Source of the DNA: Blastocatellia bacterium
GTDB taxonomy: Bacteria > Acidobacteriota > Blastocatellia > UBA7656
Assembly: GCA_035576605.1 (NCBI GenBank)
Contig: DATLWF010000598.1
Location: 1-57,044, forward strand
Direction of reading: 5' to 3'
DNA: 57,044 nucleotides
Position numbers and translations under genes: made by a program. Of this stretch, positions 6,359 to 30,720 are shown piece after piece; the first letter of the stretch is position 1, and every line of letters begins with the position of its first letter. Below the pieces are notes generated by a model. The model was not told the DNA's origin. It searched no databases and worked only from the letters and a program-made list of their open reading frames with translations.

Positions 6359-6781
6359 ATGAAAAGGAAGGTAATCGCAATCGGAACGCTCGTGTTTTCG
6401 CTTGTGCTGGTACTGGGCTCGGTCATTTCGGCTCAGAACAGGACGTCCGGTGCACCATCACCGTATGTTGAGAAAGGCCACAGACTATTCAAACAGTACT
6501 GCGCGACCTGCCACGGCATAACCGCAAAAGGCGAAGGTCCGGTCGCCGCCGCGCTGAAAGTGGGCCCGCCAGACCTGACCGCGCTCCAAAAGCCGGGTGA
6601 GAAGTTCCCGTTCAATCGCGTCGAGACTAAGATCGACGGCGAGAAAGACGTGACGGCTCACGGCACGAACAAGATGCCCGTCTGGGGGACCGTCTTCAAG
6701 CGCACCAGCGGCGAGCTTCAACGGCACGCCGACGTGTACGCGCTCGCGAAGTACATCGAGTCGATCCAGCGGTTGAAGTAG
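6359..6781 (+). CDS. secreted class-I c-type cytochrome
   Basis: It has an RBS AAGGAGGGGG, a signal peptide, a single haem motif CATCH (YCATCHGITAKGEGP) and a distal Met region (TNKMPVWG). Confidence 0.85.
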   Translation: MKRKVIAIGTLVFSLVLVLGSVISAQNRTSGAPSPYVEKGHRLFKQYCATCHGITAKGEGPVAAALKVGPPDLTALQKPGEKFPFNRVETKIDGEKDVTAHGTNKMPVWGTVFKRTSGELQRHADVYALAKYIESIQRLK

Positions 6782-6902
6782 GTGCCTCGATAACCGATGT
6801 GGACCAAACTCGTCCGGTTTCCTGCTTGCGAGCGCTTCTGGAGCGGCGGCGGGGCGGTGCCGGTAAGACTCAGATAAACCACCTACTCCCGTGCTGTCAA
6901 AA

Positions 6903-6929
6903 GGCCGCCGCCCCGATCGGCGGCCTTTT
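6903..6929 (+). terminator. rho-independent terminator
   Basis: GGCCGCCG (6903-6910) pairs with CGGCGGCC (6918-6925) around a 7-nt loop, followed by TTTT (6926-6929). An A-run lies upstream, so it may act in both directions. Confidence 0.7.
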
Positions 6930-7037
6930 GGTAGATTTCCCTAACCGCCATCACCGTGGCCACGCTGATCAATTAGCGTTGCCGATAGATCAAGCGATCC
7001 GCCAACCGACGTGACATTGAATAGGATACGCCCGCAC

Positions 7038-7107
7038 GGGCGAAGCCATTTGTGTCAACGGGCGAAACCATTTGTTGCCAAACCAGTTGACAAACCAGTT
7101 GTTGACA
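7038..7107 (+). promoter_or_regulatory. two sets of tandem direct repeats upstream of the Cus-like locus (possible response-regulator boxes)
   Basis: GGGCGAAGCCATTTGTGTCAAC (7038-7059) is followed directly by GGGCGAAACCATTTGTTGCCAA (7060-7081). Then come ACCAGTTGACAA (7082-7093) and ACCAGTTGTTGACA (7094-7107). The last repeat overlaps the -35 box. Confidence 0.4.
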
Positions 7108-7130
7108 CTGCGCATCACCGTTGTTAAATT
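7102..7130 (+). promoter_or_regulatory. sigma-70-type promoter (TTGACA - 17 nt - TAAATT)
   Basis: TTGACA lies at 7102-7107, the spacer is 17 nt and TAAATT lies at 7125-7130. This is about 30 nt upstream of the TTG start at 7161. Confidence 0.5.
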
Positions 7131-7160
7131 GAAGTCTCTAATACGACGGAGAGAGCACTG

Positions 7161-7532
7161 TTGATCAAGCTTGACAAGCTCAAGAGGAGTCAAAGGTCGC
7201 GAGTTACCTCGATCGCGATGCTCTGCCTCTTAGCTCACGCGTTTTTCGTCAGCGTCACCCATCATCACAACTCGCCGCAGAATCTCTCGTCGAAGTTGAC
7301 TGCGAGCCTGACGACGAGCGGCAACGACGGTTCGGGCGCCACGCCGGGATCTGCCGGCGACGCTCACTGTCTCTCGTGCCGTCTCCAACGGAATTTTGCT
7401 TCAAACGTTCATCCAGCTTCCGTAGTCGTTCAACCGCTTCAGGAACCATTGAGCCGCGAAACCACTTTGTCTGAGCCGCGCTCGCTAGGCTCGAGCTTCA
7501 TTTTCTCCAACCGTGCGCCGCCAAACGCTTGA
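7161..7532 (+). CDS. small membrane-anchored His/Cys protein (paralogue 1; DUF2946-like architecture)
   Basis: The 123-aa ORF has a basic N-terminus, one TM helix (IAMLCLLAHAFFVSV), THHH, a Ser/Gly-rich linker, HCLSCRL and a C-terminal NRAPP. It is a paralogue of ORF 13816..14187 with the same length and motif order. The start (TTG 7161 or ATG 7218) is uncertain. Confidence 0.65.
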   Translation: MIKLDKLKRSQRSRVTSIAMLCLLAHAFFVSVTHHHNSPQNLSSKLTASLTTSGNDGSGATPGSAGDAHCLSCRLQRNFASNVHPASVVVQPLQEPLSRETTLSEPRSLGSSFIFSNRAPPNA

Positions 7533-7881
7533 AGATCAGGCGTAGCGGTCAGATCGCCTCCTTCTTAGACCTCCGGCAAGACTTTTTGCGAACCTTCTAT
7601 TGAGCCATTGAGTGGACGATGGCCCACGGGCAGCACTTGGCATGCTCGGCCAACCATACAGCTGAACGTTCGCAACGCCCCGACCGGGAGGACCGGATGA
7701 CGGGGGCCGCCGGTTATTGCGGGCGAATTCGATCGATTGAGCGATCTCAATTCCAGATGGACTGTCATTTGGGTGCAGACCTAAACATTTCAGGCCCGTC
7801 CACGTTTCAAGGCGACCGGCCTAAACTCATGCGCCGATGTTCGGCTGGATACCAAGAGTTCATCGGCAAAAGGGCGATTCT

Positions 7882-9237
7882 ATGAGATTCCTTGCATGCT
7901 TTGTGCTGTTTTCACTTGCGTCACCACCGATCATGGCTCAGCAGTCGTCTCAAGAGCGGAAGTCTTGGCCCGGACTAAACAGCTATCTTTCCGACTTGGT
8001 CAAGGCGCAGCAACAAGCGCGACAACAAGCTCAACAAGCGGCCAATGCGGCCACGCCGCAGAAAAAAGACCTGACCCTGGCGGATTCGGTCGACTTATTT
8101 CTTCAACAGAACCTTGAGATTGTCGCCGCGCGTTACGATATCGACACTGCCGACGCCGAAAAGCTCACCGCGCGAATCCGGCCGAATCCGGAGTTTAACG
8201 CCAGTTTCGATGACTTGCCTCTGGATTTCAGTGGTCCGTTCTTCTCCGAGCAGGAGATTGCATACGGGATCTCGCAGACCTTTGAGCTCGGCGGAAAGCG
8301 GCGAAAGCGAATCAACGCCGCGAACGCGAATGCCGAACTTGCGCGGGCGAATTTTCAAGTGACCATGTGGAAACTGACCGACGATCTAAAGCGAAAGTTC
8401 TACACTGTGGTCCTGGCGAGCGATCTGCTGAGACTTGCGAACGAGAACCAGAAGACCTTTGAAGAGATCCTCAAGCACACCACGGAGCAGTTTCAACAAG
8501 GTGAGATTTCCGGGCTCGACCTTCGCCGGCTCGAAGTCGAAAAGCTGAAGTTCGATACCGACGTGGCCAATTCGCGCCGAGACTATGAGGTCGCGCTCCG
8601 TGACTTCAGGTTGGTGCTCGGTGGCGACTATCGATCGATGGAGGTGGCTCCTGCCGGTACCCTCGATTACAAATCCTACGAGTTCGTGCTGGCCGATCTT
8701 CGTGACAAATCGCTCGCGTCGCGGCCGGACCTGAGGGCCGCTCAGATCAGCGAGCTGGCGGCGGATTCGAGCATCAAGCTTCAAGACGCGCAGCGGATTC
8801 CAGACCTCACCGTCGGCGTTGGCCTCAAGCGAATTTTAGTCGACAACACATACAGTTTCGGATTGGGCATAACGTTGCCGGTGTTCGATCGCAATCAAGG
8901 GGAGCGGGTCAAGGCTCTGATTCAAAAGAAGAGAGCTCAGAACGACCAGAAGATCCTGGCCAACCTGGTATTGAGCGACGTGGAAAAGGCGTTGGCCTCG
9001 TTCGAAAGCCAGAAGAACAGGGTCGAGCTTTACCGCACAGGAGTGCTCACCAAGGTGGAGGAGATCCAAAACCTCACCGACTTCTCATTTAAGGCCGGCG
9101 AGGGAACGGTGCTTGACCTTTTGGACGCGATCAGAACTCGCCGTGAAACTCTGGCGAGCTACTATCAAGCTCTCTTCGATTACCAGAATGCGCTGCTGGA
9201 TCTCGAGCTTGCGACCGCAACGCCTCTTCAGAAGTAG
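7882..9237 (+). CDS. TolC-family outer-membrane efflux protein (CusC/CzcC-like)
   Basis: This is track ORF 7837..9237, with start taken at ATG 7882, which gives the signal peptide MRFLACFVLFSLASPPIMAQQ. It has two OEP repeats and is followed by the adaptor and HME-RND pump genes. Confidence 0.9.
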   Translation: MRFLACFVLFSLASPPIMAQQSSQERKSWPGLNSYLSDLVKAQQQARQQAQQAANAATPQKKDLTLADSVDLFLQQNLEIVAARYDIDTADAEKLTARIRPNPEFNASFDDLPLDFSGPFFSEQEIAYGISQTFELGGKRRKRINAANANAELARANFQVTMWKLTDDLKRKFYTVVLASDLLRLANENQKTFEEILKHTTEQFQQGEISGLDLRRLEVEKLKFDTDVANSRRDYEVALRDFRLVLGGDYRSMEVAPAGTLDYKSYEFVLADLRDKSLASRPDLRAAQISELAADSSIKLQDAQRIPDLTVGVGLKRILVDNTYSFGLGITLPVFDRNQGERVKALIQKKRAQNDQKILANLVLSDVEKALASFESQKNRVELYRTGVLTKVEEIQNLTDFSFKAGEGTVLDLLDAIRTRRETLASYYQALFDYQNALLDLELATATPLQK

Positions 9238-9248
9238 CGCGCCGACGC

Positions 9249-9320
9249 CCGACAAACTTCACAGTTTGTCGCTGGCTGATCGTTGAATTTTGGGACTCGC
9301 GACAAACTGAAGTTTGTCGG
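9249..9320. repeat. REPIN-like doublet: two inverted 21-23-nt hairpin units around a ~28-nt spacer (copy A)
   Basis: CCGACAAACTTCaCAGTTTGTCG (9249-9271) and CGACAAACTGAAGTTTGTCGG (9300-9320) are reverse complements. Each unit is itself an 8-bp stem with a TGAA/TTCA loop. A near-identical copy lies at 25747-25816. Confidence 0.7.
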
Positions 9321-9340
9321 ACATTTTCAAAGGAGACACG

Positions 9341-10537
9341 ATGTCACCTCCAGGGTTGATGAAGGTTATTTTGCTTGGGCCGCTCGTGCTGGCGTCGGCA
9401 TGCGGCAAGAGCGCGGACTCCCCCTCGGCTAAAACAAACCAGGGAAATAGCTCGCAAACGGCACAGGCCCAGCCGCTTGACACTGAGACCGCGCAGCCGG
9501 GCACGGTGGCCAGCGCGATCCTTGCTACCGGAACGATCCTGGTTCCGGAAAATCGTATCGCCATCATTGGTCCTGTTCACGAAGGCCGCCTCATGCACCT
9601 TTACGCTGGGCAGGGCACGCACGTGAAGAAGGGCGAGAAATTAGCGGATCTCGAATCAGCCGATATCGACGAGGCTAAGTCTGAATACCTGAAAGCGGTC
9701 GCCGATTTCGAAAACGCGCGAAGGACGACCGCAGCCGAGATCAAACTCGCGCAAGCGAGCTTCGACCGCACCAAGCTCCTTTACGAGAAGAGCATTGCGG
9801 CTCAGAAGACCCTTCAGGCGGCCGAGCACGATCTGGAGGTTGCCAAGGCCGCTGGTGAGAGCTCGATTGCATCAACGAAGGCGGCGCTTGCAGCGGCCCG
9901 GCGCAAATTGCTGGTACTCGGGATGACGCGGTCAGACATAGACGGGCTGAAGGGCGATCAGGATCTCGGCGCTCTCTTTTCGCTCACGGCGCCGATAGAT
10001 GGGATCGTTGTCGAGCGCAATGCAACCATCGGCGCGACCGTCGGACCGGATTCGAGTCTATTCAAGATTATCGACAACTCCAGCGTTTGGGTCGATGCCA
10101 ATGTCTTCGAGAAGGACCTCGATCGAGTGAAGCTCGGGCAGGGCTCAAGGGTTTCGGTTCCCGCGGTTCCCGGCACGGTCTTCTCCGGCAAAGTAATTTT
10201 TGTTTCAAGCGTGGTGGATCCGGAGACACGCACGGTCAAGGTCCGCACCGAAGTTGCAAATCGGGATGGCAGGCTAAAACCGGATATGTTCGCCAACGTA
10301 CAGATCATCACCGAGGCTGATCGCTCAGCTATCTCCGTCCCCCAATCCGCGGTACTCAACGACGACGGCCAATCCGTGGTCTTTGTTTTGACCGCCGGAG
10401 GATATGAGAAGCGCGTGGTCACTACTGGTATTCAGAGCGATGACCGGATCGAGATTCGCGACGGCGTCAAAGCCGGCGAGAAGGTCGTCGTAAAAGGAAA
10501 CTACCTGCTGCTCGAGCAGAGCAAGGTCGTCCGCTAG
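9341..10537 (+). CDS. efflux RND periplasmic adaptor (CusB/CzcB-like, HlyD family), probable lipoprotein
   Basis: This is track ORF 9314..10537. ATG 9341 follows AAGGAG. It has a lipobox LVLASAC, a coiled-coil hairpin and a beta-barrel (…ITAPIDGIVVERNATIGATV…). It sits between the OMF and pump genes. Confidence 0.9.
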   Translation: MSPPGLMKVILLGPLVLASACGKSADSPSAKTNQGNSSQTAQAQPLDTETAQPGTVASAILATGTILVPENRIAIIGPVHEGRLMHLYAGQGTHVKKGEKLADLESADIDEAKSEYLKAVADFENARRTTAAEIKLAQASFDRTKLLYEKSIAAQKTLQAAEHDLEVAKAAGESSIASTKAALAAARRKLLVLGMTRSDIDGLKGDQDLGALFSLTAPIDGIVVERNATIGATVGPDSSLFKIIDNSSVWVDANVFEKDLDRVKLGQGSRVSVPAVPGTVFSGKVIFVSSVVDPETRTVKVRTEVANRDGRLKPDMFANVQIITEADRSAISVPQSAVLNDDGQSVVFVLTAGGYEKRVVTTGIQSDDRIEIRDGVKAGEKVVVKGNYLLLEQSKVVR

Positions 10538-10539
10538 CT

Positions 10540-10648
10540 GGGGAGCGCAGGCATCCTGCCTGCCTGTGCGCCGGAAGAGGCAGCAGGGATGCTCCCAGGG
10601 TTTTCGACTTGAAGAGGCAGGCAGGGATGCCTGCGCTCCCAGGGTTTT
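10540..10648. repeat. palindrome plus direct repeat filling the adaptor-pump intergenic gap
   Basis: GGGGAGCGCAGGCATCCTGCCTGCCT (10540-10565) is the reverse complement (one extra G) of AGGCAGGCAGGGATGCCTGCGCTCCC (10615-10640). The units GAAGAGGCAG...TCCCAGGGTTTT at 10574-10604 and 10611-10648 are direct repeats. The second ends at the pump ATG. Confidence 0.65.
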
Positions 10649-13600
10649 ATGACCGACAATTTCATCGCCTTCTTCTATAAAGAACGACTGCTTGTAGCGG
10701 TCGTCTCCATGCTGATCGTTGGCGGCGGCATTCTCGCGATGAGCAAGCTTAATGTCGACGCTTTTCCGGACGTCACTCCGGTTCAGGTTGAAATAGACAC
10801 TGAAGCTCAGGGGCTCGCGCCGCAGGAGGTCGAGCAGCTCATAACATTTCCGATTGAGAACGTGATGAACGGGATTTCGGGGGTGGTCAGAGTGCTATCG
10901 ATTTCCAAGTTTGGTCTGTCGGTGGTGACGGTCTACTTCAGCGACGACATAGACATTTACTTCGCTCGTCAGCAGGTCCTTGAACGGCTCTCGCTCGCAA
11001 AAGACAGGATCCCGCAGGGATTCGAACCGGAGATGGGCCCGATCACCACCGGCACAGGTCAGATATACCTCTACGAAGTCGTGGGAGCCGGCAGAAGCAA
11101 CCAGGAACTGCGCACGATTCAGGACTGGATCGTCAAGCTTCAACTGCGCACCGTGCCCGGTGTCGCCGACGTGCTCAGCTTTGGCGGCGACGTGAAGCAA
11201 TACCAGGTCATCGTGAATCAGGAGGCGCTGGTCAATTACCACATTGCGCTCAAGGCGGTTTTCGACGCCGTTCAGGCAAACAATCAAAACGCCGGCGCGA
11301 ATTTCATCGAGCACGGCGACAGCCAGTACATCGTTAGGGGGATCGGGCTGGTCAAGGACGTGTCGGATATCAAGAACATTGTCCTCGACTCGCGGAAGGG
11401 CACGCCGGTTCGAGTGAGCGACGTGGCGACGGTAGAGATCGGAAACGAGATCCGCCAGGGGGCGGTCACCAAGGACGGCGCGGGCGAAGTAGTGACTGGG
11501 ATCGTTCTGAAGAGGATCAATGAGAATACCGAGCAGGTGATCAATCGTATCAAGGCGAAGGTCGTCGAGATCAACAAAGCTCTGCCAGAAGGCGTCAGGA
11601 TTGTCGACTACTACGATCAGGGAGAGTTGGTCAGCAGCAGCGTGCACACAGTGGTCGAGTCGCTGATCGAAGGCGAGGCGCTCGTTCTGGTGATCCTCAT
11701 CCTGCTACTCGGAGACATCCGCAGTTCGTTGATTACGGCGGCGGCGATCCCGTTCTGCATGCTTGTGGCGTTCATTCTGATGTGGTACGACGGGCTGTCG
11801 GCGAATCTCTCTTCGCTTGGAGGGCTCGCGATCAGCATCGGGATGATGGTTGACGCCACCGTAGTAATGGTCGAGAACATCTATCGCCATCTCGAGGAGC
11901 ATCAGGAGACATCCGTCCGCGAGGCAATACTTGTTGCCGCTCAGGAGATCGGCCGGCCGATATTCTTTGCCATTCTCGTGATCATCGCGGTCTTTCTACC
12001 TGTCTTTACTCTACAGGGGATCGAAGGCAAGCTGTTTAAGCCGCTGGCCTACGCCGTCACCTTCTCGATGATCGGTTCGATGATGATGGCGGTTTGTATC
12101 GCACCAATGATGTGCGCCCTCTGGCTGAGGCTCAGGAAGGGGGACAGGCGTCCCAATCTGATCATTCGATTTGTAAAAAGCATCTACGTCCCGGTGCTCG
12201 AGTGGGCCATCAAGCACCGATATGCGGCGATTGCCATCGCCGTCTTGCTGATCGTGTGGAGCGTCGCGGATGTATTCATTCTGGGCAGCGAATTCCTCCC
12301 GACGATAGACGAAGGAAACATGCTTGTGAGGGCAACGATGCCCGCGAGCATCTCGCTCAATCGCGCGATCGACGTGTCGACTCAGATCGAGCGCGCACTT
12401 CGAGAATTCCCCGAAGTTGAAACCGTTGTCGCCAAGATCGGGCGCGCTGAACTTGGCGGCGATCCCGAGAGCGTCAGCAATGACGAGTTGTATGTCAGAC
12501 TGAAGCCAAAGACAAAGTGGACTACCGCCGAAACAAAAGATGACCTGGTCGACGCGATGCGTCATCGGGTGGAGGGATTCCCCGGAGTCAAATTCAACTT
12601 CTCTCAGGTCATTCAAACGCGAAATGACGAATTGATCTCGGGAATCAACGCCCAGATCGCGGTGAAGGTGTTTGGCGAGAACCAGGATACTTTGAAGAGG
12701 CTCACGGACGAGATTCGAGCCGCGATGTCCGGCATTCGGGGTGCGAAGGACCTCGCGGTCGAGCAAGTGGCCGGCGAGGAACACCTCGAGATCACGCTGG
12801 ATCGGGACCGGATCGCGCGTTACGGACTCAACATCTCCGACGTGCTGGAAGCGATCAAGATCGCCATCGGCGGCGACGAAGCAACCGATGTGCTCGAAGG
12901 CCAGCGGCGATTTGCGATCTTCATTCGGATGAAAGAGAGCTTCAGGGACCAGGTCGACAAGCTGGGCTCTATTCTCATCGCCGCTCCGGTGGCGGGAAGC
13001 GTGCCGCTCGGACAGCTTGCCTCGTTCACGCTGTCAAGCGGCGACTCAGTTATCAGCCGTGAAGACTCGCTGCGCCGGGTAGTAGTCATGTGCAACGTAG
13101 CGGGCCGCGACATCGGTAGCTTTGTTCACGAAGCGCAGACCGCGGTCGCGAGCCGGGTCAATATGGAACCCGGATACTTCATCACCTGGGGTGGTCAATT
13201 CGAAAACGAACAACAGGCCGTTCGCCGGTTGCTGATCGCAATCCCGATCTCGCTGTTGCTCGTATTCGTTCTGATCTTCGCCTGTTTCAATTCTCTGCGC
13301 AACACGCTGACGATCATTTTCAACATACCTATCGCGCTGGTAGGAAGCACGACGTTTCTTTTGATTTCAGGATTTCCGCTGAGCGTTCCGGCGATCGTCG
13401 GGTTCATTGCGGTGTTCGGAGTTGCCGTCCAGAACGGCATGGTGATGGTGTCCTACATCAACAAGCTCCGCGATCAGGGAATCGAGTTGCACGAAGCGGT
13501 AGTCACCGGCGCGACCGTCCGGCTACGAGCCGAATTGTTGAGCGCGCTGATCGGGAGCATAAGCTTGATCCCATTTATCATCTCGTCGGGAACAGGAGCA

Positions 13601-13726
13601 GAGATCGAGAAACCGCTGGCGATCGTCGTGGTCGGCGGGCTTGTGACTCGGCCGATCAAGATCGTTATTCTGCCGATGGTGTACGAATGGGTCGAACGTC
13701 GGGCCGCAAGACGGGCCGCGGATTAG
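10649..13726 (+). CDS. CusA/CzcA-family heavy-metal efflux RND transporter
   Basis: The 1025-aa ORF has 12-TM RND topology. The N-terminus is typical of HME pumps (FIAFFYKERLLVAVVSMLIVGGG...VDAFPDVTPVQV). The TM4 motif is SIGMMVDATVVMVEN. Confidence 0.95.
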   Translation: MTDNFIAFFYKERLLVAVVSMLIVGGGILAMSKLNVDAFPDVTPVQVEIDTEAQGLAPQEVEQLITFPIENVMNGISGVVRVLSISKFGLSVVTVYFSDDIDIYFARQQVLERLSLAKDRIPQGFEPEMGPITTGTGQIYLYEVVGAGRSNQELRTIQDWIVKLQLRTVPGVADVLSFGGDVKQYQVIVNQEALVNYHIALKAVFDAVQANNQNAGANFIEHGDSQYIVRGIGLVKDVSDIKNIVLDSRKGTPVRVSDVATVEIGNEIRQGAVTKDGAGEVVTGIVLKRINENTEQVINRIKAKVVEINKALPEGVRIVDYYDQGELVSSSVHTVVESLIEGEALVLVILILLLGDIRSSLITAAAIPFCMLVAFILMWYDGLSANLSSLGGLAISIGMMVDATVVMVENIYRHLEEHQETSVREAILVAAQEIGRPIFFAILVIIAVFLPVFTLQGIEGKLFKPLAYAVTFSMIGSMMMAVCIAPMMCALWLRLRKGDRRPNLIIRFVKSIYVPVLEWAIKHRYAAIAIAVLLIVWSVADVFILGSEFLPTIDEGNMLVRATMPASISLNRAIDVSTQIERALREFPEVETVVAKIGRAELGGDPESVSNDELYVRLKPKTKWTTAETKDDLVDAMRHRVEGFPGVKFNFSQVIQTRNDELISGINAQIAVKVFGENQDTLKRLTDEIRAAMSGIRGAKDLAVEQVAGEEHLEITLDRDRIARYGLNISDVLEAIKIAIGGDEATDVLEGQRRFAIFIRMKESFRDQVDKLGSILIAAPVAGSVPLGQLASFTLSSGDSVISREDSLRRVVVMCNVAGRDIGSFVHEAQTAVASRVNMEPGYFITWGGQFENEQQAVRRLLIAIPISLLLVFVLIFACFNSLRNTLTIIFNIPIALVGSTTFLLISGFPLSVPAIVGFIAVFGVAVQNGMVMVSYINKLRDQGIELHEAVVTGATVRLRAELLSALIGSISLIPFIISSGTGAEIEKPLAIVVVGGLVTRPIKIVILPMVYEWVERRAARRAAD

Positions 13727-13815
13727 CGTGAGGAGTTCCAGCCCTGACGCTGGAGCGCTCGGACGACCCGGCGCGCCCGATTTGGCGCGAGTAGAAACAA
13801 TCTGGAGGCGTTGGG

Positions 13816-14187
13816 TTGAAGACGCGAACTAGACAGACAAGACCGGACAGAGTGCGATCACGCATCGCGCTGACTATGCTCGTCCTGGTTGCGTACGCGT
13901 CGCTGATCAACGCGACTCACCATCATCACGGCCAGCTACGACAGCCCGTATTCGATTCAAGTATATCTTCCAGTGAGGATAGAAATTCCAGCCGGGCGCC
14001 AGCGTCAAACGACCCTTCGCACTGCGCCACGTGTCGATTACTGCGAGGATTTGATTCTGCGTTGCGGGCGCCTTCGATATCGTTTGACCTCTGCCCACGA
14101 TCTTTGAGCTATGAAACCAGGCAGCGCGTGCCTCACTTGCTCGGCGCTGCCGTCGTTTTCTCCATCCGTGGACCTCCCTTTGTCTAA
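13816..14187 (+). CDS. small membrane-anchored His/Cys protein (paralogue 2; DUF2946-like architecture)
   Basis: The 123-aa ORF has a TTG start after GGAGG, a basic N-terminus, a TM helix (IALTMLVLVAYASLI), THHHH, a Ser-rich linker, HCATCRL and a C-terminal IRGPP. It starts 89 nt after the pump stop and ends 190 nt before a TonB-dependent receptor gene. Confidence 0.65.
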   Translation: MKTRTRQTRPDRVRSRIALTMLVLVAYASLINATHHHHGQLRQPVFDSSISSSEDRNSSRAPASNDPSHCATCRLLRGFDSALRAPSISFDLCPRSLSYETRQRVPHLLGAAVVFSIRGPPFV

Positions 14188-14377
14188 GACCTGATCGCCA
14201 ACCATCCGAGCTCACCGGATCGCTCCGCATTCTCAGGATTCGAGCGAGGAGTTGTTTTGGGAATCCTGCTTGCGCCCGACCCGCGCCGCATGGCTCCACA
14301 AGTCCTGCTGCCTGCCAATCACCGGCAGCACGACTTTGGCATCAACCTTCATTCACTCAGACAAAGGAGAGTTGACT

Positions 14378-16942
14378 ATGCAAGCCAATAGAAAAGGCGT
14401 TCGATCCCCCAACTTGCTGCGATCCATTTCTTTGGTCCTGTTCTTTACGATGACGGCATTCTCGTTAACGGGTAACTTGCCCCTCGCCCTTGCTCAGTCG
14501 CTTGGCACGGCAGGGACGATCGAGGGAGTTGTGACGGACCCGACCGGCGCTGTGGTTCCCGGCGCGAGCGTGAAGATTGAAAACCGCATCACCGGCTATC
14601 AACGAACAACCAGCACTGACTCAAACGGGGCGTTTCGCTTCGATAACATACCGCCGAACAACTATCAGGTAACTGTCTCGGCGACAGGTTTCGGCGCTGC
14701 GCAACAACAGGTTGAAGTTCGGTCCTCGGTTCCTCAAGGCTTGAACATAGCACTGACTGTGGCGGGAACCGCGGCCTCGGTTGAGGTGTCTGGTTCGGCC
14801 GACATTATCGAGACTGTTCCTACAACTCACACGGACATAGATCAAACGCTGATCGCGAGAATGTCGCTCAGCACGCCCGGCTCGGGGTTGAGCGATGTTA
14901 TCACCAAAAGCGCACCTGGCGTAGCCGCGGACTCTAACGGGTTCGTTCATCCGCTTGGCGATCACGCGCAAGTATCGATGTCTTTGGACAATCAGCCGAT
15001 CAACGACCAGCAGAGCAAAGCTTTCTCTACGCAACTTCCCGTCAACGCAATTCAATCGCTAGAGGTAATAACCGGGGGGCCGCCCGCCGAATATGGCGAC
15101 AAGACAAGCCTGGTGATCAATGCAACCACCAAATCGGGACTGGGCGCTAGCAGACCGTTTGGCAGCATTTCGGGACTGTACGGAAGCTTCGGAACGACGC
15201 AAGAACAGGGTACCTTCGGATTCGGAAACAAGAGGGCAGGCAATTTCACGGCGTTCGACTTCGAGCGGTCCGGCCGCTTTCTCGATCCTCCGGAGTTCGT
15301 TGCTCTGCACGACAAGGGCAAGTCCGCGACAATCTTTGACCATTTCGACTACAACCCGACATCCAATGACGCCTTGCACTTGAACCTGTATTGGGCGCGA
15401 AACTTCTTTCAGACGGCAAACACGGTTGACCAGGAAGCTCTAGGGCAAGACCAGCGGCAACTCGTCCACACGATCAACATTGCGCCAGGATACGTGCACA
15501 CGTTCAGTCAGTCGCTGCTGTTGACCATCAATCCGTTCTACAGGCTTGATGTGGTCAAATACCTTCCGAGCGCCAATCCATTCTCCGATGAGACCCAGAC
15601 GATCGCACAGTCGCGCCGGCTCAATAACGTCGGAATCAAGGCCGATGTGGCTTACAACCACGGGATCCACAACGTAAAGGTTGGCGTTCAGGTTACGCAC
15701 ACATTCCTGACTGAGGGGTTTCAGTTTGGGATAACCGATCCGGCATTCAACGATCCTGCGAGCGACAGCTTCATACCTGGACTTGCTCCGTTCGACCTGA
15801 CGCGCGGAGGCCGTCTGTTTACGTTTCGCGGCCACACGGATGTAAAGCAAGAGGCAGTATATGCCCAGGACCTAATCACCATTCACGACCTGTCGTTGAA
15901 TCTTGGGGTCCGCTTCGACAATTACAACGGCATCAGCCACGGCAATCTTTGGCAACCGCGAGTCGGCGCCGCGTATCACATAAAACCGGCCAACACCGTG
16001 CTGCGTTTCGCGTACACGCGGACTTTCGAGACTCCGTATAACGAGAATCTGATCTTGTCGAGCGCGACCGGAGGAGGCGGGCTGGCGGACGGAATACTCG
16101 GCAACGCGACGGCTCAACCGCTTAAGCCGGGGAGGCGAAATCAGTTCAACACTGGCATCCAGCAGGGAATCGGACGATACATAATTGTGGATGCAGACTA
16201 CTTCTGGAAGTACACGCAAAACGCGTATGACTTCAACGTCATTCTGAACACGCCGGTCGCGTTTCCAATCTCGTGGAATAAATCCAAGCTCGATGGCGTT
16301 TCGGTGCGAGTCAATCTTGCCAACTACAAAGGCCTGTCCGCCTTCTTTGTAGCCGGGCACACACGAGCGCGGTACTTCCCGCCCGAGAGTGGCGGCTTGT
16401 TCTTCAACTCGGATTTGCCGGAAGGCGTATTCCGAATTGATCACGACCAGGCATTCCAGCAGACGACTCAGGTGCAGTACCAGTTCAATCAATTCAAAAA
16501 GCTGGCGCCTTACGTCGCATTTACGTGGCGCTACGATAGCGGGCTAGTTGCAGGCTCGGTTCCAGACTTTGACACGGCACTCACTTTCACGCCGGATCAA
16601 CAGGCGCAGATCGGATTGTTCTGCGGCAGCGTCTTCGCGACGCCGACTCAGGGTTTGACCGGTTGCACGGACCCCAATCGCGGTGCGACTCGTGTGCGCA
16701 TTCCTGCCGATGGCACAGCGAATGATGACCATAATCCGCCTCGCATCGCACCGCGCCATTTGTTCGACGCCAGCGTCGGAACAGATAACCTATTCCGGAC
16801 TGAACGCGCGAAAGTGACGCTGCGGCTGACAGGAATCAACCTGGCGAACAAGGAAGCGCTGTACAACTTTCTCTCAACCTTCAGCGGCACCCACTTCGTA
16901 ACGCGCCGCGCCTTCCAGGCGCAGTTAGGCTTAACTTTCTAG
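14378..16942 (+). CDS. TonB-dependent receptor with N-terminal carboxypeptidase-regulatory-like domain
   Basis: This is track ORF 14252..16942. ATG 14378 follows AAGGAGAG. It has a signal peptide, a CarboxypepD_reg segment (GTIEGVVTDPTGAVVPGASVKIENRITGYQR...YQVTVSATGF), a plug (…IQSLEVITGGPPAEYGDKTS) and a beta-barrel ending in ...LGLTF. Confidence 0.9.
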   Translation: MQANRKGVRSPNLLRSISLVLFFTMTAFSLTGNLPLALAQSLGTAGTIEGVVTDPTGAVVPGASVKIENRITGYQRTTSTDSNGAFRFDNIPPNNYQVTVSATGFGAAQQQVEVRSSVPQGLNIALTVAGTAASVEVSGSADIIETVPTTHTDIDQTLIARMSLSTPGSGLSDVITKSAPGVAADSNGFVHPLGDHAQVSMSLDNQPINDQQSKAFSTQLPVNAIQSLEVITGGPPAEYGDKTSLVINATTKSGLGASRPFGSISGLYGSFGTTQEQGTFGFGNKRAGNFTAFDFERSGRFLDPPEFVALHDKGKSATIFDHFDYNPTSNDALHLNLYWARNFFQTANTVDQEALGQDQRQLVHTINIAPGYVHTFSQSLLLTINPFYRLDVVKYLPSANPFSDETQTIAQSRRLNNVGIKADVAYNHGIHNVKVGVQVTHTFLTEGFQFGITDPAFNDPASDSFIPGLAPFDLTRGGRLFTFRGHTDVKQEAVYAQDLITIHDLSLNLGVRFDNYNGISHGNLWQPRVGAAYHIKPANTVLRFAYTRTFETPYNENLILSSATGGGGLADGILGNATAQPLKPGRRNQFNTGIQQGIGRYIIVDADYFWKYTQNAYDFNVILNTPVAFPISWNKSKLDGVSVRVNLANYKGLSAFFVAGHTRARYFPPESGGLFFNSDLPEGVFRIDHDQAFQQTTQVQYQFNQFKKLAPYVAFTWRYDSGLVAGSVPDFDTALTFTPDQQAQIGLFCGSVFATPTQGLTGCTDPNRGATRVRIPADGTANDDHNPPRIAPRHLFDASVGTDNLFRTERAKVTLRLTGINLANKEALYNFLSTFSGTHFVTRRAFQAQLGLTF

Positions 16943-20994: not shown

Positions 20995-21116
20995 GGGAAG
21001 AGTAGAGGTTGGACTTTCGGGATTCCGGGCCGGGAACTCCTTTTAGGAGTTCAATGTGTCTTTGATGACGGGATGTTTGTTCGACGCATCCAGACTTGCT
21101 AACCTATCCGCAAAGT

Positions 21117-23483
21117 ATGCGATTTCTGATTGCGATAACCTTGGTAGCGACCAGTTGTGTTGCCACTGCCTGGGCGGACACCAGGGGCGTAATCGGCGGC
21201 CGGGTTACCGATCCTCAGAATGCCGCGGTCTCGCAAGCATCCGTCGCGCTCACGAACAAGATCGACGGACGAAGGCTGGAGACGACGACCGATGACGAAG
21301 GGTCGTTTGAATTCCGATTCGTAAACGTGGGCGAGTACACAATCACCGTCGCAAGCACGGGCTTCTCCGTCGTGTCAGTTCGCACAGTGGTGACATCCGG
21401 GCAGCGTGTGGAAATAAACTTTACGCTCAAGGAGATTCGCGTCGCCGGAGAGGAAGTCAACGTCACGTCGACCCAGGAAGTCCTCGACCCTCGCGGCTCA
21501 TCTATTACCACCGGGTTTTCAATGACCGATGTCTCGCACCTTGCTGGAGCAAGCGAGTCAACGGCGGGGCTTGAGGCTCACACCGGTACTGCCTGGCGTT
21601 CGCAGGAACACCTGCACATCAGAGGCGCACACCAGATCGGTTATCAAATCAACGGCATCAACATTCCGGACCTTTCTATTTTCGGGGCAATCACGCCGTT
21701 CATCGATCCCCGCAATATCAAGTTCACCGAAGTGACGACCGGCGGACTCGCCGCCGAGTACGGCAACCGCACCGCGGGTATCGTGAATACGCTGGTCAGG
21801 TCGGGCTTCGATCATGGTTACGGCCGCGGCGAAATCGAGCTGTCGGGTGGAAACCTTTCGCGAGGTTCAATCTTCGCCAACTTCGGCAGTCACCGAAGCG
21901 AGAAGTTCGCTTACTACGTTCAAGGCACCGCGCTCACGAGCGGGCGCGGGTTCAACCCTCCGCCCGACTCGATCACCCCGCTCGATCTGAACAAAAATGG
22001 AAGGGCAGACGTACTCGATGAGCCCGGCTCTCAGAGCCGGCACAACTACCGGCGCACGTTTCAGGGGTTCACGAACCTCGAGTGGCGGCCGACCTCGCAG
22101 GATGCGTTCAACTTTGTCATGGGAGCTTTTCGCTCGGACTTTCAGGTGCCGAACACTTTGGAGCAGCAGTCTTTCGGAAGGGATTACATACAACTCGAAC
22201 GCGACCAGTTTCAGAACCTTCAATGGACTCGAGTCATGTCCTCTGCGAGGCTGTTGACGATCGGCCTATATCATCACTTCACAAAGCTTGAGACGGACGG
22301 CCGCGCGGATGATCCATCCAACCCGCTGGCCTCAGATAACCGCCGGGCAAATTACTACGGGGGCAAGGCTGATTTCATCGAGCGCACATCCCGCCATCTG
22401 ATGAAGCTGGGCGTTGAAATTTATGACAGTCGCCTGAATGATGACTTTGGCCTGCTGCCCAATCCAGCAAACCCACAACGCCTCGCTGCGCCCGTGGCGA
22501 GCCGCGTACCGTCGCGCGCCATCGAAGAATCGGTCTACGCCCAGGACCAGTTCGATGCGACGGATCGGCTGACGCTCAGTTGCGGCGTTCGAGCTGACTT
22601 CTTTCAAGCGCGCTACGATCTGCGGACACGGCCTCATATCAACGAGGAATATGCATTCGTTAGTCCGCGGATAGGATTTGCGTATCGGCTCGGCAAGCGC
22701 GACGCGGTATTGTTCGGCAACTTCGCTTATCTTTTCTTGCCGCCTCCGATTGAGTTCTTCGAGCTGCCAAATAATTCAGGCGCAATCGACGGATTTTCAT
22801 TCACTCCCGTGAAGCCTGAGAAGGACGTTCAGTATGATATCGGTTTGAAGTTTGCCGTCCGTCGCTTTCGCGTGCGAGTCAATCAGTGGTTCAAACGACA
22901 GAACGGATTCCTCGATCACTTGCAGCTCGCGTCCTTGAGCGGCACGGGAGAGTTGATCAACCCGAACATCTTTTTGCCTGTGAATCTCGACCGCGCTCGG
23001 ACATATGGCTTAGAGTCGTTCGTCGAGGCTCCAGCTTATCGCGGGCTCCGGATCTACGTGAACTACTCATTGAACTACGCCCAGGCCGTCGGCGGTGTGA
23101 TCAATGGCTTCAACGATGGGAGCCCGCCGGAGAGAAGTTACTTCTTCCTTGATCACGATCAGCGACATCAAGTCTACGTGGGAGCAGATTACCAGTGGGA
23201 AAAACTCCATGCGTTCGCAAACGCGAGCTACGCTTTCGGCAGCGGTTTCCCTGACGCGTCAGATTCTCTATTCGGACAGTGTGTCACCAGGAATTGCCGG
23301 CTGCCCGCCCACTCGGTCGTAAACCTCGCCTTTGGAAAAGTATTTGCCAATCGCGTTGAGGGGAAGATCGAGATCGAGGACATCACGAACAGCGTTTATC
23401 CGATAAACCTGGGAAGCGAGTTCAACGGCTCGCACTTTTCGGCGCCTCGGTTGGCGATGTTACGTCTGGCCTATCGTTTCTAG
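21117..23483 (+). CDS. TonB-dependent receptor with carboxypeptidase-regulatory-like domain
   Basis: This is track ORF 21096..23483, with start taken at ATG 21117 (MRFLIAITLVATSCVATAWA). It has GVIGGRVTDPQNAAVSQASVALTNKIDG...YTITVASTGF, a plug and a barrel ending ...LAYRF. Confidence 0.9.
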   Translation: MRFLIAITLVATSCVATAWADTRGVIGGRVTDPQNAAVSQASVALTNKIDGRRLETTTDDEGSFEFRFVNVGEYTITVASTGFSVVSVRTVVTSGQRVEINFTLKEIRVAGEEVNVTSTQEVLDPRGSSITTGFSMTDVSHLAGASESTAGLEAHTGTAWRSQEHLHIRGAHQIGYQINGINIPDLSIFGAITPFIDPRNIKFTEVTTGGLAAEYGNRTAGIVNTLVRSGFDHGYGRGEIELSGGNLSRGSIFANFGSHRSEKFAYYVQGTALTSGRGFNPPPDSITPLDLNKNGRADVLDEPGSQSRHNYRRTFQGFTNLEWRPTSQDAFNFVMGAFRSDFQVPNTLEQQSFGRDYIQLERDQFQNLQWTRVMSSARLLTIGLYHHFTKLETDGRADDPSNPLASDNRRANYYGGKADFIERTSRHLMKLGVEIYDSRLNDDFGLLPNPANPQRLAAPVASRVPSRAIEESVYAQDQFDATDRLTLSCGVRADFFQARYDLRTRPHINEEYAFVSPRIGFAYRLGKRDAVLFGNFAYLFLPPPIEFFELPNNSGAIDGFSFTPVKPEKDVQYDIGLKFAVRRFRVRVNQWFKRQNGFLDHLQLASLSGTGELINPNIFLPVNLDRARTYGLESFVEAPAYRGLRIYVNYSLNYAQAVGGVINGFNDGSPPERSYFFLDHDQRHQVYVGADYQWEKLHAFANASYAFGSGFPDASDSLFGQCVTRNCRLPAHSVVNLAFGKVFANRVEGKIEIEDITNSVYPINLGSEFNGSHFSAPRLAMLRLAYRF

Positions 23484-23554
23484 GAATGCGAATCCGTCGC
23501 CCGCGTTAATTCCAGATTCATTTTGTGCGTGCTAGACTGGGCCGGGACTCAGTC

Positions 23555-24244
23555 ATGCGAATACTGCTTGTCGAGGACGAACCCAGAGTCGCGCGCTTCA
23601 TAGCGAAGGGTTTGCGCGAGCAGAGCTACGCGGTTGATATCGCCGGTGATGGCGACGCAGCGTTATACAAGGCCGAAATCGATGACTACGACCTGATCGT
23701 TCTGGACGTAATGATTCCCTCGCGCGATGGGTTTGACGTCTGCCGCGAGCTGCGCCGCCAGGCCGTAACCACTCCCGTCCTCATGCTCACCGCGCGGGAC
23801 GCGGTGAACGACCGTGTTGCAGGGCTGGATGCGGGCGCCGACGACTACCTGAGCAAACCCTTCGACTTCAAAGAGCTGCTCGCAAGACTGCGCGCGCTGC
23901 TCCGTCGGAGAGAAGCTCTCAGGACAGAATCCCTTCGGGTCGATGACCTGACAATCAACACAACGAACCACACTGTCGAGCGTTCCGGAAGAAATATCAG
24001 TCTGACGGCAAAGGAGTACTCGCTGCTCGAGTTCTTTGCGTTGAACGCAGGCAAGCTGGTGGGACGCGACGAGATCGGCCGACACGTGTGGGATGAGAAC
24101 TTCGATCCGTTCTCGAATGTCATCGATGTCTATGTTCGGCGGTTGCGCAAGAAGATCGACGAGGGTTCTAGTCGGCCGTTGATCCACACACGCCGCCGCG
24201 AAGGCTATGTTTTCTCCGGCGAGGCTAAAGGCGGTAATGTTTAA
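23555..24244 (+). CDS. OmpR-family response regulator (CusR/CopR-like)
   Basis: It has a receiver domain (MRILLVEDEPRVARFI...DLIVLDVMIPSRDGFDVC...PVLMLTARD) and a winged-helix output domain (…LTAKEYSLLEFF…IHTRRREGYVF). Confidence 0.93.
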   Translation: MRILLVEDEPRVARFIAKGLREQSYAVDIAGDGDAALYKAEIDDYDLIVLDVMIPSRDGFDVCRELRRQAVTTPVLMLTARDAVNDRVAGLDAGADDYLSKPFDFKELLARLRALLRRREALRTESLRVDDLTINTTNHTVERSGRNISLTAKEYSLLEFFALNAGKLVGRDEIGRHVWDENFDPFSNVIDVYVRRLRKKIDEGSSRPLIHTRRREGYVFSGEAKGGNV

Positions 24245-25643
24245 CAGCGTACACGTTCGGATGACATTGTGGTACGTGCTCGTCTTCGGGTTGCTGCTGG
24301 CCTGCTTTAGCGTTTTCGTCTACGCCGCAATCTCGCGAGCGACATATTCGCGGCTTGATCAATCTCTCACCAACAGCACTGAGACCACAGCGAATTTGCT
24401 TAGATCGGAGATGGACGAGAATGAAGGCGATGTTACTGCGGCTGCGGCCGAGACCCAAAAACTGCTGAGCCTCGGTGACGCGCATATGGCGTTGTTTCAA
24501 GGCGGGCACGCGCTGACAGCGAATGACTCGAGCGGCTGGGTGATAAACGTTCCCGAGTCGGCCTTTCGGGCCGCCGAGGCAGACAGCGGACCGTCGCTGT
24601 CCACGGTTGGTGGTTTTGACGAGGAGGGAGCGCGGCTGGCGGTTCTGCGGTTGGGCACGGGCGAGGCGGAGTACTTTCTTGCTCTGGCGCAACCGCTGCA
24701 TAACACCGTAGAAGAACTCGAAGCGCTGGGACGCATCTTCTACCTGGCGATTCCAGGCGCACTGCTGGTTGCCGGTGTGGGAGGTCTGCTCCTCGCTCGG
24801 AAGAGCCTGGCTCCGGTCGCCGCGATGACCGAGCAGGCTGCATCGATCAGCGCTCGGAATCTTCACGAGCGGCTGGAGGTGACCAACTCTCGGGATGAAC
24901 TGGGCCGGCTGGCCACGGTGCTCAACAATCTGCTCTCGAGGCTCGACCGCTCGTTCGAGAGCCTGCGCCAGTTCACTGCCGACGCTTCCCACGAGATGCG
25001 CACTCCACTTTCGATCATAAGAGGAGAGGCCGAAGTAGCACTTTCTCAGAACCGTGATGAAGCGGAATATCGGGAGTCCCTTGCGATAGTGCAGGACGAG
25101 GCGCGGCGGCTCTCCCGCATGGTTGACGATATGCTCGCCCTTGCGCGCGCGGATGACGGACAACAAAGACTGAACGTCGAAGAGTTCTACCTCAATGATC
25201 TTGTGGAAGAGTGCGCAAGGTCGTCGCAAGTCCTCGCTCTCGCCAAAGGAATATCTTTGACGGTCGACCCTGCAACTGACATCACTTTTCGAGGCGACGA
25301 ATCTCTGCTCAGGAGAATGATCGTAAACCTGCTCGACAACGCCATAAAATACACTCCCTCTGGCGGTCAGGTTTCGGTCAGGGTCTCAAGCAAAGACGCC
25401 GGCGTAGAGATTACTGTGGCGGATACCGGGATTGGCATACCCGCCGAGGCCACGACACGCATCTTTGAGAGGTTTTACAGAGCCGACCGAGCTCGCTCCC
25501 GATCAGATGGTGGAAGCGGATTGGGACTCTCGATAGCCAAATGGGTGGCGGAAACTCACAATGGTTCCATTGAGCTTGATAGCAGACCGGGCGGGGGCAG
25601 CACGTTTACTGTTTCGCTTCCTCAAAGCAAGCCCACTGCTTGA
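24237..25643 (+). CDS. sensor histidine kinase (two TM helices, HAMP, HisKA, HATPase; CusS-like)
   Basis: ATG 24237 overlaps the regulator stop by 8 nt. It has an H-box FTADASHEMRTPLSII, an N-box LLDNAIKYTP and G-boxes DTGIGIP / GGSGLGLSIAK. Confidence 0.92.
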   Translation: MFNSVHVRMTLWYVLVFGLLLACFSVFVYAAISRATYSRLDQSLTNSTETTANLLRSEMDENEGDVTAAAAETQKLLSLGDAHMALFQGGHALTANDSSGWVINVPESAFRAAEADSGPSLSTVGGFDEEGARLAVLRLGTGEAEYFLALAQPLHNTVEELEALGRIFYLAIPGALLVAGVGGLLLARKSLAPVAAMTEQAASISARNLHERLEVTNSRDELGRLATVLNNLLSRLDRSFESLRQFTADASHEMRTPLSIIRGEAEVALSQNRDEAEYRESLAIVQDEARRLSRMVDDMLALARADDGQQRLNVEEFYLNDLVEECARSSQVLALAKGISLTVDPATDITFRGDESLLRRMIVNLLDNAIKYTPSGGQVSVRVSSKDAGVEITVADTGIGIPAEATTRIFERFYRADRARSRSDGGSGLGLSIAKWVAETHNGSIELDSRPGGGSTFTVSLPQSKPTA

Positions 25644-25746
25644 TGCCGCTGCTGCGGTTGATGAGCTATGAAGGACTAGAACGCTTAATCGTGGGTTCAT
25701 CTTCAATCGATAGAATGTGCTGGTAGCGCAAGTCGGACGGCGACGT

Positions 25747-25816
25747 CCGACAAACTTCAGTTTGTCGTTTCGCCGATGGTGGATTCGAACATACGCGACA
25801 AACTGAAGTCTGTCGG
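25747..25816. repeat. REPIN-like doublet (copy B of the element at 9249-9320)
   Basis: CCGACAAACTTCAGTTTGTCG (25747-25767) and CGACAAACTGAAGTCTGTCGG (25796-25816) are inverted. Both copies share the flanks GACG(C/T)CCGAC... and ...GTCGGACATTT, and both end 20-21 nt before the next ATG. Confidence 0.7.
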
Positions 25817-25837
25817 ACATTTCTTAGGAAAACATTT

Positions 25838-26368: not shown

Positions 26369-26429
26369 TTCATCTGCGCTGCATTTCGCCTTTGAATCCG
26401 GGTTACAAAACCCGCTATAAAACTACCGA

Positions 26430-29030: not shown

Positions 29031-29179
29031 GCAGCGAGACTAAACGACGAGCGGTACAGCGTGAATTGTGGTTGAAGGTAGAGATGCTTGGTGTATGCGC
29101 AGGAACTTGACGCCCCAGGTTCTGGACAGCACTTCCTCTGTAAAGTAAAGTAGAAAGAAGTTGGGCGCTAACATCCTCT

Positions 29180-30706: not shown

Positions 30707-30720
30707 CCGTTGCTAACAAA

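Follow-up and report, generated by a model that had tools for sequence, protein, structure and literature searches.

The closest described relatives of the genes treated here are short upstream open reading frames (ORFs) of the DUF2946 class. CruR (Bp2923), an upstream ORF of Bordetella pertussis, perceives copper through a CxxC motif and carries a C-terminal RAPP arrest motif, and its arrest shields the transcript from Rho-dependent termination ahead of a TonB-dependent receptor gene (Roy et al. 2022, mBio, PMC9426467). In that work DUF2946 is characterised by a CxxC motif, a RAPP located three residues from the end, a stretch of 45 residues (give or take 1-2) separating them, an export signal (>95 % of members), a position as first gene of the operon and a long intergenic distance; CruR itself is described as poorly structured and not detectable as protein, and a Rho utilization (rut) region was mapped in cruR (PMC9426467). 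Here we describe two ORFs, called ORF1 and ORF2, in a stretch of 57,044 nucleotides from a Blastocatellia bacterium (Acidobacteriota; assembly GCA_035576605.1, contig DATLWF010000598.1), hereafter the window. ORF1 lies ahead of a heavy-metal efflux resistance-nodulation-division (HME-RND) operon and ORF2 ahead of a TonB-dependent receptor gene, and their sequences mark them as most likely acidobacterial members of the known DUF2946/CruR/CutF kind with features specific to their subfamily.

RAPP and RGPP have been established as strong, context-tolerant arrest cores in vitro and in vivo, RGPP being equal or stronger; for CruR, arrest in vitro was placed at the stage where the two Pro codons occupy the P and A sites, and across Gram-negative phyla small ORFs with RAPP/RGPP show an enrichment ahead of genes related to TonB or to Cu (EMBO J 2025, PMC12992588). 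CutF belongs to the DUF2946 superfamily as well, and its nascent chain senses periplasmic copper and switches on cutO by stalling (Ozturk et al., PMC9973294; 10.1101/2025.02.05.636593). Neither CruR nor CutF can be detected as a mature protein, and both work in cis only (PMC9426467; PMC9973294); CzcI has been placed in the CutF-like superfamily (PMC9973294). Among the commonest downstream neighbours of CutF-like/DUF2946 genes are OEP (outer-membrane efflux protein), ACR_tran and HlyD_D23, with OEP the most frequent, followed by TonB-like proteins (Ozturk et al. 2023, PMC9973294). An earlier annotation of this DNA made from the sequence alone, the original prediction, knew of no described role of DUF2946 proteins with HME-RND pumps; this list makes that statement outdated, and the association of DUF2946 with RND operons, published in 2023 (PMC9973294), is not new. 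Family, motif rules and the association with RND and TonB genes have all been described before, and nothing here is conceptually new; new at the local level are the Blastocatellia subfamily with its invariant HxH, the conserved TTG starts, the promoter cassette and ORF2 as a promoterless internal leader.

Motif architecture and coding status of ORF1 and ORF2

Both ORFs are open on the forward strand and comprise 123 codons each when counted from TTG. Their likeness (BLASTP, 35 % identity over 110 residues, E 6e-19) is far above chance, and coordinates, lengths and this E value agree with the earlier claim of two 123-residue paralogues sharing a motif order. Their features are as follows.

7148-7155, forward strand: Shine-Dalgarno-like GGAGAGAG, 9 nt ahead of the ORF1 TTG start
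7161-7532, forward strand: ORF1, 123 residues, putative DUF2946/CruR-like leader ORF heading the efflux operon
7209-7268, forward strand: putative hydrophobic export segment of ORF1 (residues 17-33 including A-H-A), then the invariant H34-H35-H36; pN/pS 0.08
7368-7379, forward strand: ORF1 C70-L-S-C73, presumed metal-sensing CxxC within the invariant box HCLSCRLQRNF; pN/pS 0.10
7512-7523, forward strand: ORF1 R118-A-P-P121, putative arrest core 44 residues past CxxC and two codons ahead of the stop
13804-13808, forward strand: Shine-Dalgarno GGAGG, 7 nt ahead of the ORF2 TTG start
13816-14187, forward strand: ORF2, 123 residues, putative DUF2946/CruR-like leader ORF heading the TonB-dependent receptor gene
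13918-13929, 14023-14034 and 14167-14178, forward strand: HHHH, CxxC and RGPP of ORF2

In both ORFs a basic N-terminus is followed by a hydrophobic helix, T-HHH(H) (residues 33-36 in ORF1 and 34-38 in ORF2), a linker rich in Ser and Gly, H-C70-x-x-C73-R-L-x-R-x-F and R118-(A/G)-P-P121, after which a two-residue tail leads to the stop. CxxC and R(A/G)PP are 44 residues apart in both and 43-45 apart in all 22 close homologues. Of 147 subfamily representatives, 146 contain CxxC and 141 contain R[AGS]PP (RAPP 123, RGPP 15, RSPP 3); the spacing is 44 or 45 in 135 of these 141 (44 in 85, 45 in 50), and 110 have the two-residue tail. The only invariant columns over 83 aligned sequences are H34, H36, C70, C73, R118, P120 and P121. 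The HxH pair, which takes the form H-x-H in the wider subfamily, lies 30-34 residues N-terminal of CxxC and is as invariant as CxxC and RxPP.

The Pfam profile of DUF2946 (PF11162) matches ORF1 over positions 3-117 of 117 with 23.8 bits (gathering score 23.7, E 7.9e-5) and is matched by 35 of the 83 subfamily members (best E 7e-7), with no other family matched. A Pfam scan at E up to 10 returned nothing but DUF2946 for the two ORFs and no CusF-family match, and a search of NCBIfam gave 0 matches for either. A profile built from the ORF1 and ORF2 homologues collects 218 clusters (50 % identity) and retrieves PF11162-labelled entries and entries named 'DUF2946 family protein' by NCBI, from Pyrinomonadaceae, so that the resemblance to DUF2946 suspected earlier is confirmed by the ORF1 score and by the reach of the subfamily profile. 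Both ORFs show the DUF2946/CruR hallmarks of CxxC, R(A/G)PP near the stop and a spacing within 1-2 of 45, and both have the sequence pattern of RAPP-type arrest peptides, R-A/G-P-P near the C-terminus upstream of a next gene. Operon-first position and long gap are found for ORF1 (terminator, promoter, 349-nt gap) and in part for ORF2 (190-nt gap, no promoter found).

CruR has 45 residues between its motifs where ORF1 and ORF2 have 44, shares with them a tract richer in C than in G in the ORF and a predicted lack of structure, and like ORF2 precedes a TonB-dependent receptor gene across a long untranslated gap (162 nt in CruR). It is, however, proteobacterial, whereas ORF1 and ORF2 come from Acidobacteriota (Blastocatellia); it has a tail of three residues instead of two, while ORF2 carries RGPP, and at its N-terminal end has only a semi-conserved Cys (PMC9426467) in place of the subfamily's invariant HxH after the hydrophobic segment. 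In contrast to the CruR system no PepSY_TM gene follows, the receptor carries a CarboxypepD_reg domain and does not belong to the OprC type, ORF1 leads an HME-RND efflux operon, and ORF2 is internal and not first in its unit.

AlphaFold, run on a shallow alignment, gave a confident model only for helix 11-37 (predicted local distance difference test, pLDDT, up to 93), a weak helix 71-82 and values mostly <50 elsewhere. The putative export segment consists of the basic N-terminus and a hydrophobic stretch of ~17 residues with a conserved A-x-A (AHA/AYA) at its middle (ORF1 residues 25-27, 7233-7241; ORF2 residues 26-28). Signal peptidase I might cut at this A-x-A, and the hydrophobic stretch would then serve as a cleavable signal peptide instead of a permanent anchor. 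Some ORF2-type homologues (P0018, P0019, P0022; L004 7927-8331, L003 3462-3866, with L numbers denoting loci other than the window) lack a stop two codons past RGPP; P0018, P0019 and P0022 read on for 12-14 residues with a conserved tail HQPSL(K/N)(K/Q)SGV.

The comparative data speak for translation of both frames. The ratio dN/dS of ORF1 against 13 ORF1-clade homologues is 0.17-0.30, and over all tested pairs it is 0.17-0.45 with a single, barely diverged ORF2 pair at 0.68. By region, pN/pS is 0.08 in the hydrophobic segment with HHH, 0.10 in the CxxC box and a near-neutral 0.77 in the linker. GGAG(A/G) stands 7-10 nt 5' of the start across ORF1, ORF2 and their homologues, of which most start with TTG, two with GTG and one with ATG. 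Gene callers often begin at an internal Met and report 104-residue products, or skip the ORF altogether, as for the ORF2 homologue in L002. The internal-Met calls are probably wrong, because the Met is Leu in several homologues, TTG and Shine-Dalgarno sequence are kept, and the 18 codons 5' of it (codons 2-19) are under purifying selection (pN/pS 0.38), which makes the TTG starts credible on sequence grounds. The erratic gene calls are also what could be said for chance open frames or a non-coding leader RNA; given the E value of 6e-19 between the ORFs, the 218 homologous clusters, the low dN/dS (0.17-0.34) with motif-specific constraint and the conserved Shine-Dalgarno sequences and start codons, this explanation is exceedingly improbable and effectively refuted.

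A set of 5.8 billion proteins contained 16 homologues of ORF1 and 6 of ORF2. Genome matches were Acidobacteriota metagenome-assembled genomes throughout, mostly Blastocatellia, except for two labelled 'uncultured Clostridia', and the window sequence recurs in soil metagenomes. A metagenome scan with the 15-mer GAGCCATTGAGTGGA found 120 loci, which are chance matches as 0 of them has a CruR-like ORF. Within the window, a search for ORFs with C-terminal PP and for the promoter cassette revealed no copies beyond ORF1, ORF2 and one cassette.

Gene neighbourhoods, promoter and untranslated gaps

ORF1-type leaders stand ahead of an operon of OEP, membrane fusion protein and RND pump (OEP-MFP-RND) in six loci, namely the window, L001, L002, L005, L007 and L009. 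About ten further ORF1-clade leaders (L003, L010-L012, L014-L019) stand ahead of receptors, of which those in L011 and L014 are 83-86 % identical to the window receptor. ORF2-type leaders are found directly ahead of a CarboxypepD_reg receptor in 4/4 loci (window, L002, L003, L004), in L003 between two receptors and with no adjacent HME-RND operon. All 5 sampled distant subfamily members likewise head CarboxypepD_reg receptors, across gaps of 106-186 nt. The idea that ORF1 and ORF2 bracket and serve the pump is not supported by these neighbourhoods, since ORF2-type leaders go with receptors, no ORF2 lies behind the pumps of L001 and L005, and most of the subfamily heads receptors; bracketing of the pump does not tie ORF2 to it. 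As the receptor-heading arrangement prevails even among distant members, the importer is the ancestral and dominant partner of the subfamily and the pump-heading ORF1 group derived. In the soil contig L004 (1458-1881) a receptor 93 % identical to that of the window lies directly upstream of OEP-MFP-RND, with the ORF1 leader missing and a degenerate gap remnant in its place, an arrangement implying that the pump unit can exist without a leader.

The following elements surround the two ORFs.

6907-6924, forward strand: terminator-like GC hairpin and T tract, 3' of a cytochrome c gene, separating that gene from the ORF1 unit
7102-7131, forward strand: sigma-70-like promoter cassette TTGACAC-N17-GTTAAATTG, unique in the window (0 expected by chance)
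7533-7881, forward strand: untranslated gap between ORF1 and the OEP gene, 349 nt, holding a stop-codon hairpin and a pump-specific element
14188-14377, forward strand: gap between ORF2 and the receptor gene, 190 nt, its start C-rich and G-poor

The cassette TTGACAC-N15-17-GTTAAATTG, followed by a short 5' untranslated region, GGAGA and TTG, is conserved ahead of all ORF1-clade leaders, those that head pumps as well as those that head receptors. No operator-like conservation is visible around it, and it fits a constitutive promoter with control exerted after initiation. In the window this promoter-like site (TTGACA-17-TAAATT, 7102-7130), with the terminator-like hairpin further 5', upholds the earlier remark that ORF1 sits behind a good promoter. 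ORF2-type leaders have no such cassette and always lie 24-100 nt behind another gene, which raises the possibility that ORF2 acts as a checkpoint inside the transcript of the pump. Direct repeats 5' of the promoter, GGGCGAARCCATTTGT twice (7038-7053, 7060-7075) and AAACCAGTTG twice (7080-7089, 7092-7101), are not conserved in orthologous loci; L002 has CAATTGCGT tandem repeats at the equivalent place.

The gap to the next gene measures 210-349 nt in pump-type loci and ~88-275 nt in receptor-type loci. In windows of 78 nt the C/G ratio rises up to 2.14 in the interior of ORF1 and to 2.38 across the ORF2 stop and gap, compared with 1.78 for the 99th percentile of coding windows, and these tracts resemble the rut region in cruR. 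An element of ~30 nt (7596-7630) with the core AGCCATTGAGTGGA at 7603-7616, also seen around AGCCAYTGAGTGGA at the same positions, is kept in 6/6 pump-type loci, and receptor-type gaps lack it. Within it a stem GCCAY...RTGGC may form, with one compensatory change (L001) and one mismatch (L005, L007). At 7531-7563 a hairpin (GAAG..AGGCG / CGCCU..CUUC) begins its 5' arm with the second base of the ORF1 stop codon. Other pump-type loci have hairpins of different sequence at this site, in L001 followed by a U7 tract; the comparison covers five distinct, closely related loci and has no statistical power. The stop-codon hairpin may be a pause or attenuator element.

Several other candidates in the gaps were considered. 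A small ORF at 7619-7885 (88 codons), with a conserved ATG just 3' of the element and an ATGA overlap with the OEP start at 7882, was rejected as a conserved gene because its length and frame vary over the six loci (7, 16, 32, 49, 54 and 88 codons). In L007 a small gap ORF again overlaps the OEP ATG, and the OEP gene there has no visible Shine-Dalgarno sequence. No riboswitch-like or CutF-like stem-loop is claimed, as the gap folds were no better than those of shuffled controls, and an Rfam search (E up to 1, 6500-14600) found no known RNA family. At 14340-14380 a local hairpin can pair the receptor AAGGAG with CAACCUU ~15 nt upstream, both of which are kept in L011 and L014.

Proposed mechanism and rival explanations

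From homology, the invariance and spacing of the motifs, signs of purifying selection, the order of the genes and the promoter cassette, we consider it likely that ORF1 and ORF2 are cis-acting metal-sensing leader ORFs of the DUF2946 (CruR/CutF) class and not structural pump partners. In functional terms they are most likely no pump accessories but arrest-peptide leader ORFs, of which each transporter unit has one. Arrest at RAPP or RGPP, metal sensing by CxxC and the involvement of Rho have been published for relatives; for the present peptides we infer the arrest itself, the metal sensed and the sign of regulation from the comparison.

Translated from a weak TTG, the nascent chain of either ORF would be directed to the membrane by its basic N-terminus and hydrophobic segment (N-in, C-out), and the ribosome would arrest at R118-(A/G)-P-P121 with Pro120 occupying the P site and Pro121 the A site. 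The ribosome exit tunnel holds 30-40 residues. On arrest CxxC would be 47-50 residues from the peptidyl-transferase centre and thus just outside the tunnel, with HxH ~35 residues further out, and metal bound by the Cys pair, and probably by the His pair, may alter the force on the chain and with it the lifetime of the arrest. By family precedent copper is the most likely metal. The two-residue tail would put the stalled ribosome over the last codons, the stop and the first bases of the gap, where it could block Rho loading or hairpin nucleation. The arrested ribosome would decide on transcription through the gap into the downstream genes, probably, as in CruR, by keeping Rho off the C-rich, G-poor RNA that lies in the 3' half of the ORF and at the beginning of the gap. 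ORF1 would in this manner gate the OEP-MFP-RND operon and ORF2 the TonB-dependent receptor.

For the receptor, metal likely relieves the arrest, which would lead to termination and switch the importer off, following CruR logic. Pump-type and receptor-type ORF1 leaders hardly differ in peptide and promoter, so a sign inversion at the pump would have to sit in the gap RNA, or else pump and importer would be co-induced. The only promoter cassette of the locus lies ahead of ORF1 and ORF2-type leaders always lie behind another unit, so one transcript is possible. We regard as possible, though doubtful, that the locus is a single transcript with two serial arrest-peptide checkpoints in the order promoter, ORF1, efflux pump, ORF2, importer. 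If so, near-identical sensors might give opposite outputs through differing RNA (the 7603-7616 element, the stop-codon hairpin); alternatively, pump and importer would be on together in metal scarcity and the HME-RND pump would serve acquisition, e.g. metallophore export, and not detoxification.

The original prediction saw in the ORFs a stable membrane-tethered, periplasm-facing metal-binding protein, be it sensor, chaperone or gate, that works with the HME-RND pump in place of CusF. A hydrophobic N-terminal segment, an invariant HxH and CxxC that would face the periplasm, purifying selection on the peptide and an operon that holds no cusF-like gene would all suit such a protein, but it is unlikely given the company the subfamily keeps: ORF2-type proteins travel with receptors, ORF1-type pumps occur without ORF2, and receptors are what follows in about ten ORF1-clade loci and behind every distant member sampled. 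An accessory role would leave unexplained why R(A/G)PP is invariant, keeps a fixed distance of 44-45 residues from CxxC and stands two codons ahead of the stop; TTG starts this weak and a gap of 349 nt are ill-suited to stoichiometric co-production, and the relatives CruR and CutF are undetectable as mature proteins and only cis-acting. AlphaFold, suggested earlier as a check, predicts no folded extracytoplasmic domain beyond the N-terminal helix. Of the accessory idea the metal-sensing role is retained as the best reading, whereas a stable chaperone, gate or CusF substitute is not supported by the receptor neighbours or by the R(A/G)PP signature, which is that of the CruR arrest peptide and not one of metal chaperones. 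CusF of E. coli resembles ORF1 only in its HME-RND association and presumed metal binding; ORF1 has no CusF-family match or predicted folded domain and lies ahead of the operon behind a 349-nt gap. CzcI of Cupriavidus metallidurans is a small exported protein whose gene lies directly upstream of an HME-RND operon (czcCBA), and CzcI and CzcI2 have been grouped with CutF-like proteins and proposed as metal-sensing regulators (PMC9973294). By analogy the ORFs could encode small exported proteins acting in trans on a two-component system or anti-sigma factor, free of ribosome arrest, and an OmpR-type two-component pair is indeed present at 23525-25643. CzcI, however, lacks a C-terminal proline motif (PMC9973294), whereas RAPP is invariant in ORF1 and R(A/G)PP across the ORFs, and the two-component genes lie ~10 kb off beside a different receptor and are not syntenic with leaders elsewhere, which renders this explanation very improbable.

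A CutF-type translational switch shares with the favoured leader reading the protein superfamily and would bring a natural 'metal switches on' logic for a detoxification gene, and the pairing of the receptor AAGGAG with CAACCUU, kept in L011 and L014, would offer it a structure to act upon. CutF from Rhodobacter capsulatus is, like ORF1 and ORF2, of the DUF2946 class, with Cys/His metal sites and a nascent chain that senses metal (PMC9973294; 10.1101/2025.02.05.636593), but it has CxxxC, PPP, a cleavable Sec signal and dependence on elongation factor P (EF-P) where ORF1 and ORF2 have the CxxC and RAPP/RGPP of CruR. Its gap is short, with a stem-loop over the next ribosome-binding site, whereas the next starts here are 349 and 190 nt from the stalled ribosome, beyond helicase reach, in gaps with no significant fold, and Ozturk et al. 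expect such a mechanism only for short gaps; a switch of this type is accordingly improbable. The export monitors ApdA, ApdP, ApcA and SecM also combine an N-terminal export signal with C-terminal R-A/G-P-P near the stop (Morici et al. 2024, PMC10951233; PMC12992588) and regulate a downstream gene, the role proposed for ORF1 and ORF2. They monitor Sec/YidC activity and have no metal ligands, in contrast to the HxH and CxxC at fixed distances and the downstream metal transporters of the present ORFs.

Several points weigh against an assignment of the two ORFs as metal-sensing arrest leaders. The Pfam scores are marginal, ORF2 reaching 18.5 bits (E 3.6e-3, end-to-end) and thus falling below the gathering score, and the subfamily is peripheral within DUF2946. 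ORF2 has no recognisable promoter of its own and is not first in an obvious operon. The gaps fold no better than shuffled controls (z -1.15 and -1.38 for the two gaps), and a stable membrane protein could account as well for purifying selection over most of the peptide's length and for the very strong conservation of the hydrophobic segment. CruR logic would turn an efflux pump off in metal excess, so ORF1 would have to be opposite in sign or the pump no detoxifier. Copper is not established as the signal, as the receptor is not OprC-type and the pump lacks the CusA Met triad. A search for RNA-seq runs with the locus found none, and only soil DNA metagenomes carry it.

The comparison likely corrects a mis-annotation, in that genes missed, truncated to an internal ATG or labelled as pump accessories are probably regulators of two transporter units. 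It would carry arrest-peptide control of the CruR/CutF kind into Acidobacteriota, a phylum that dominates in soil and has been poorly cultured. The subfamily it delineates is coherent and comprises at least 218 clusters, characterised by an additional, invariant pair of HxH ligands, a strict geometry, starts at TTG and a promoter that is conserved. The same putative sensor type before exporter and importer in one locus would furthermore be a compact natural test bed for the question of how one peptide family gives 'metal on' and 'metal off' outputs.

The pump operon and its surroundings

The transport genes led by ORF1 and ORF2 are these.

7882-9237, forward strand: OEP/TolC-like outer-membrane efflux protein, start revised to a conserved ATG followed by a signal peptide
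9314-10537, forward strand: CzcB/CusB-type periplasmic adaptor
10649-13726, forward strand: CusA/CzcA-family HME-RND pump (TIGR00914, 1085 bits vs cut-off 701)
14378-16942, forward strand: TonB-dependent receptor with N-terminal CarboxypepD_reg domain and plug, start ATG 14378, led by ORF2

An alignment of the six pump-type loci places the OEP start most likely at ATG 7882 and not at 7837, which sets the gap between ORF1 and the pump operon at 349 nt. The operon had been called CusCBA-like; its composition of OEP, adaptor and HME-RND pump of the CusA/CzcA family agrees with this, but the pump is not a clear CusA orthologue. Overall it is closer to ZneA (692 bits) than to CusA (636 bits), and R, N and E replace the Met triad M573/M623/M672 of E. 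coli CusA. Its transmembrane helix 4 motif, SIG..DAT..VEN, is CusA-like and lacks the Asp residues of ZneA DFG..DGA. ZneA-like carboxylates are presumably retained in part. By sequence the pump is a hybrid with mixed metal signals. Two further details given earlier are correct: ORF2 starts 89 nt past the pump stop at 13726, and no cusF-like gene is present within the operon, as its gaps of 76, 111 and 89 nt leave no room for one.

Further downstream the window encodes a second CarboxypepD_reg receptor (21096-23483), an OmpR-type response regulator with a HAMP histidine kinase (23525-25643), another outer-membrane barrel protein (26430-29030) and a second, distantly related OEP-MFP-RND operon (29180-35243); no DUF2946-like leader was found at the transport genes of this region (21096-35243). 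In L001 the orthologous pump gene (13420-16513) is split into two overlapping ORFs of 743 and 299 residues by a frameshift or an assembly error, and only a 135-residue receptor fragment lies 3' of it.

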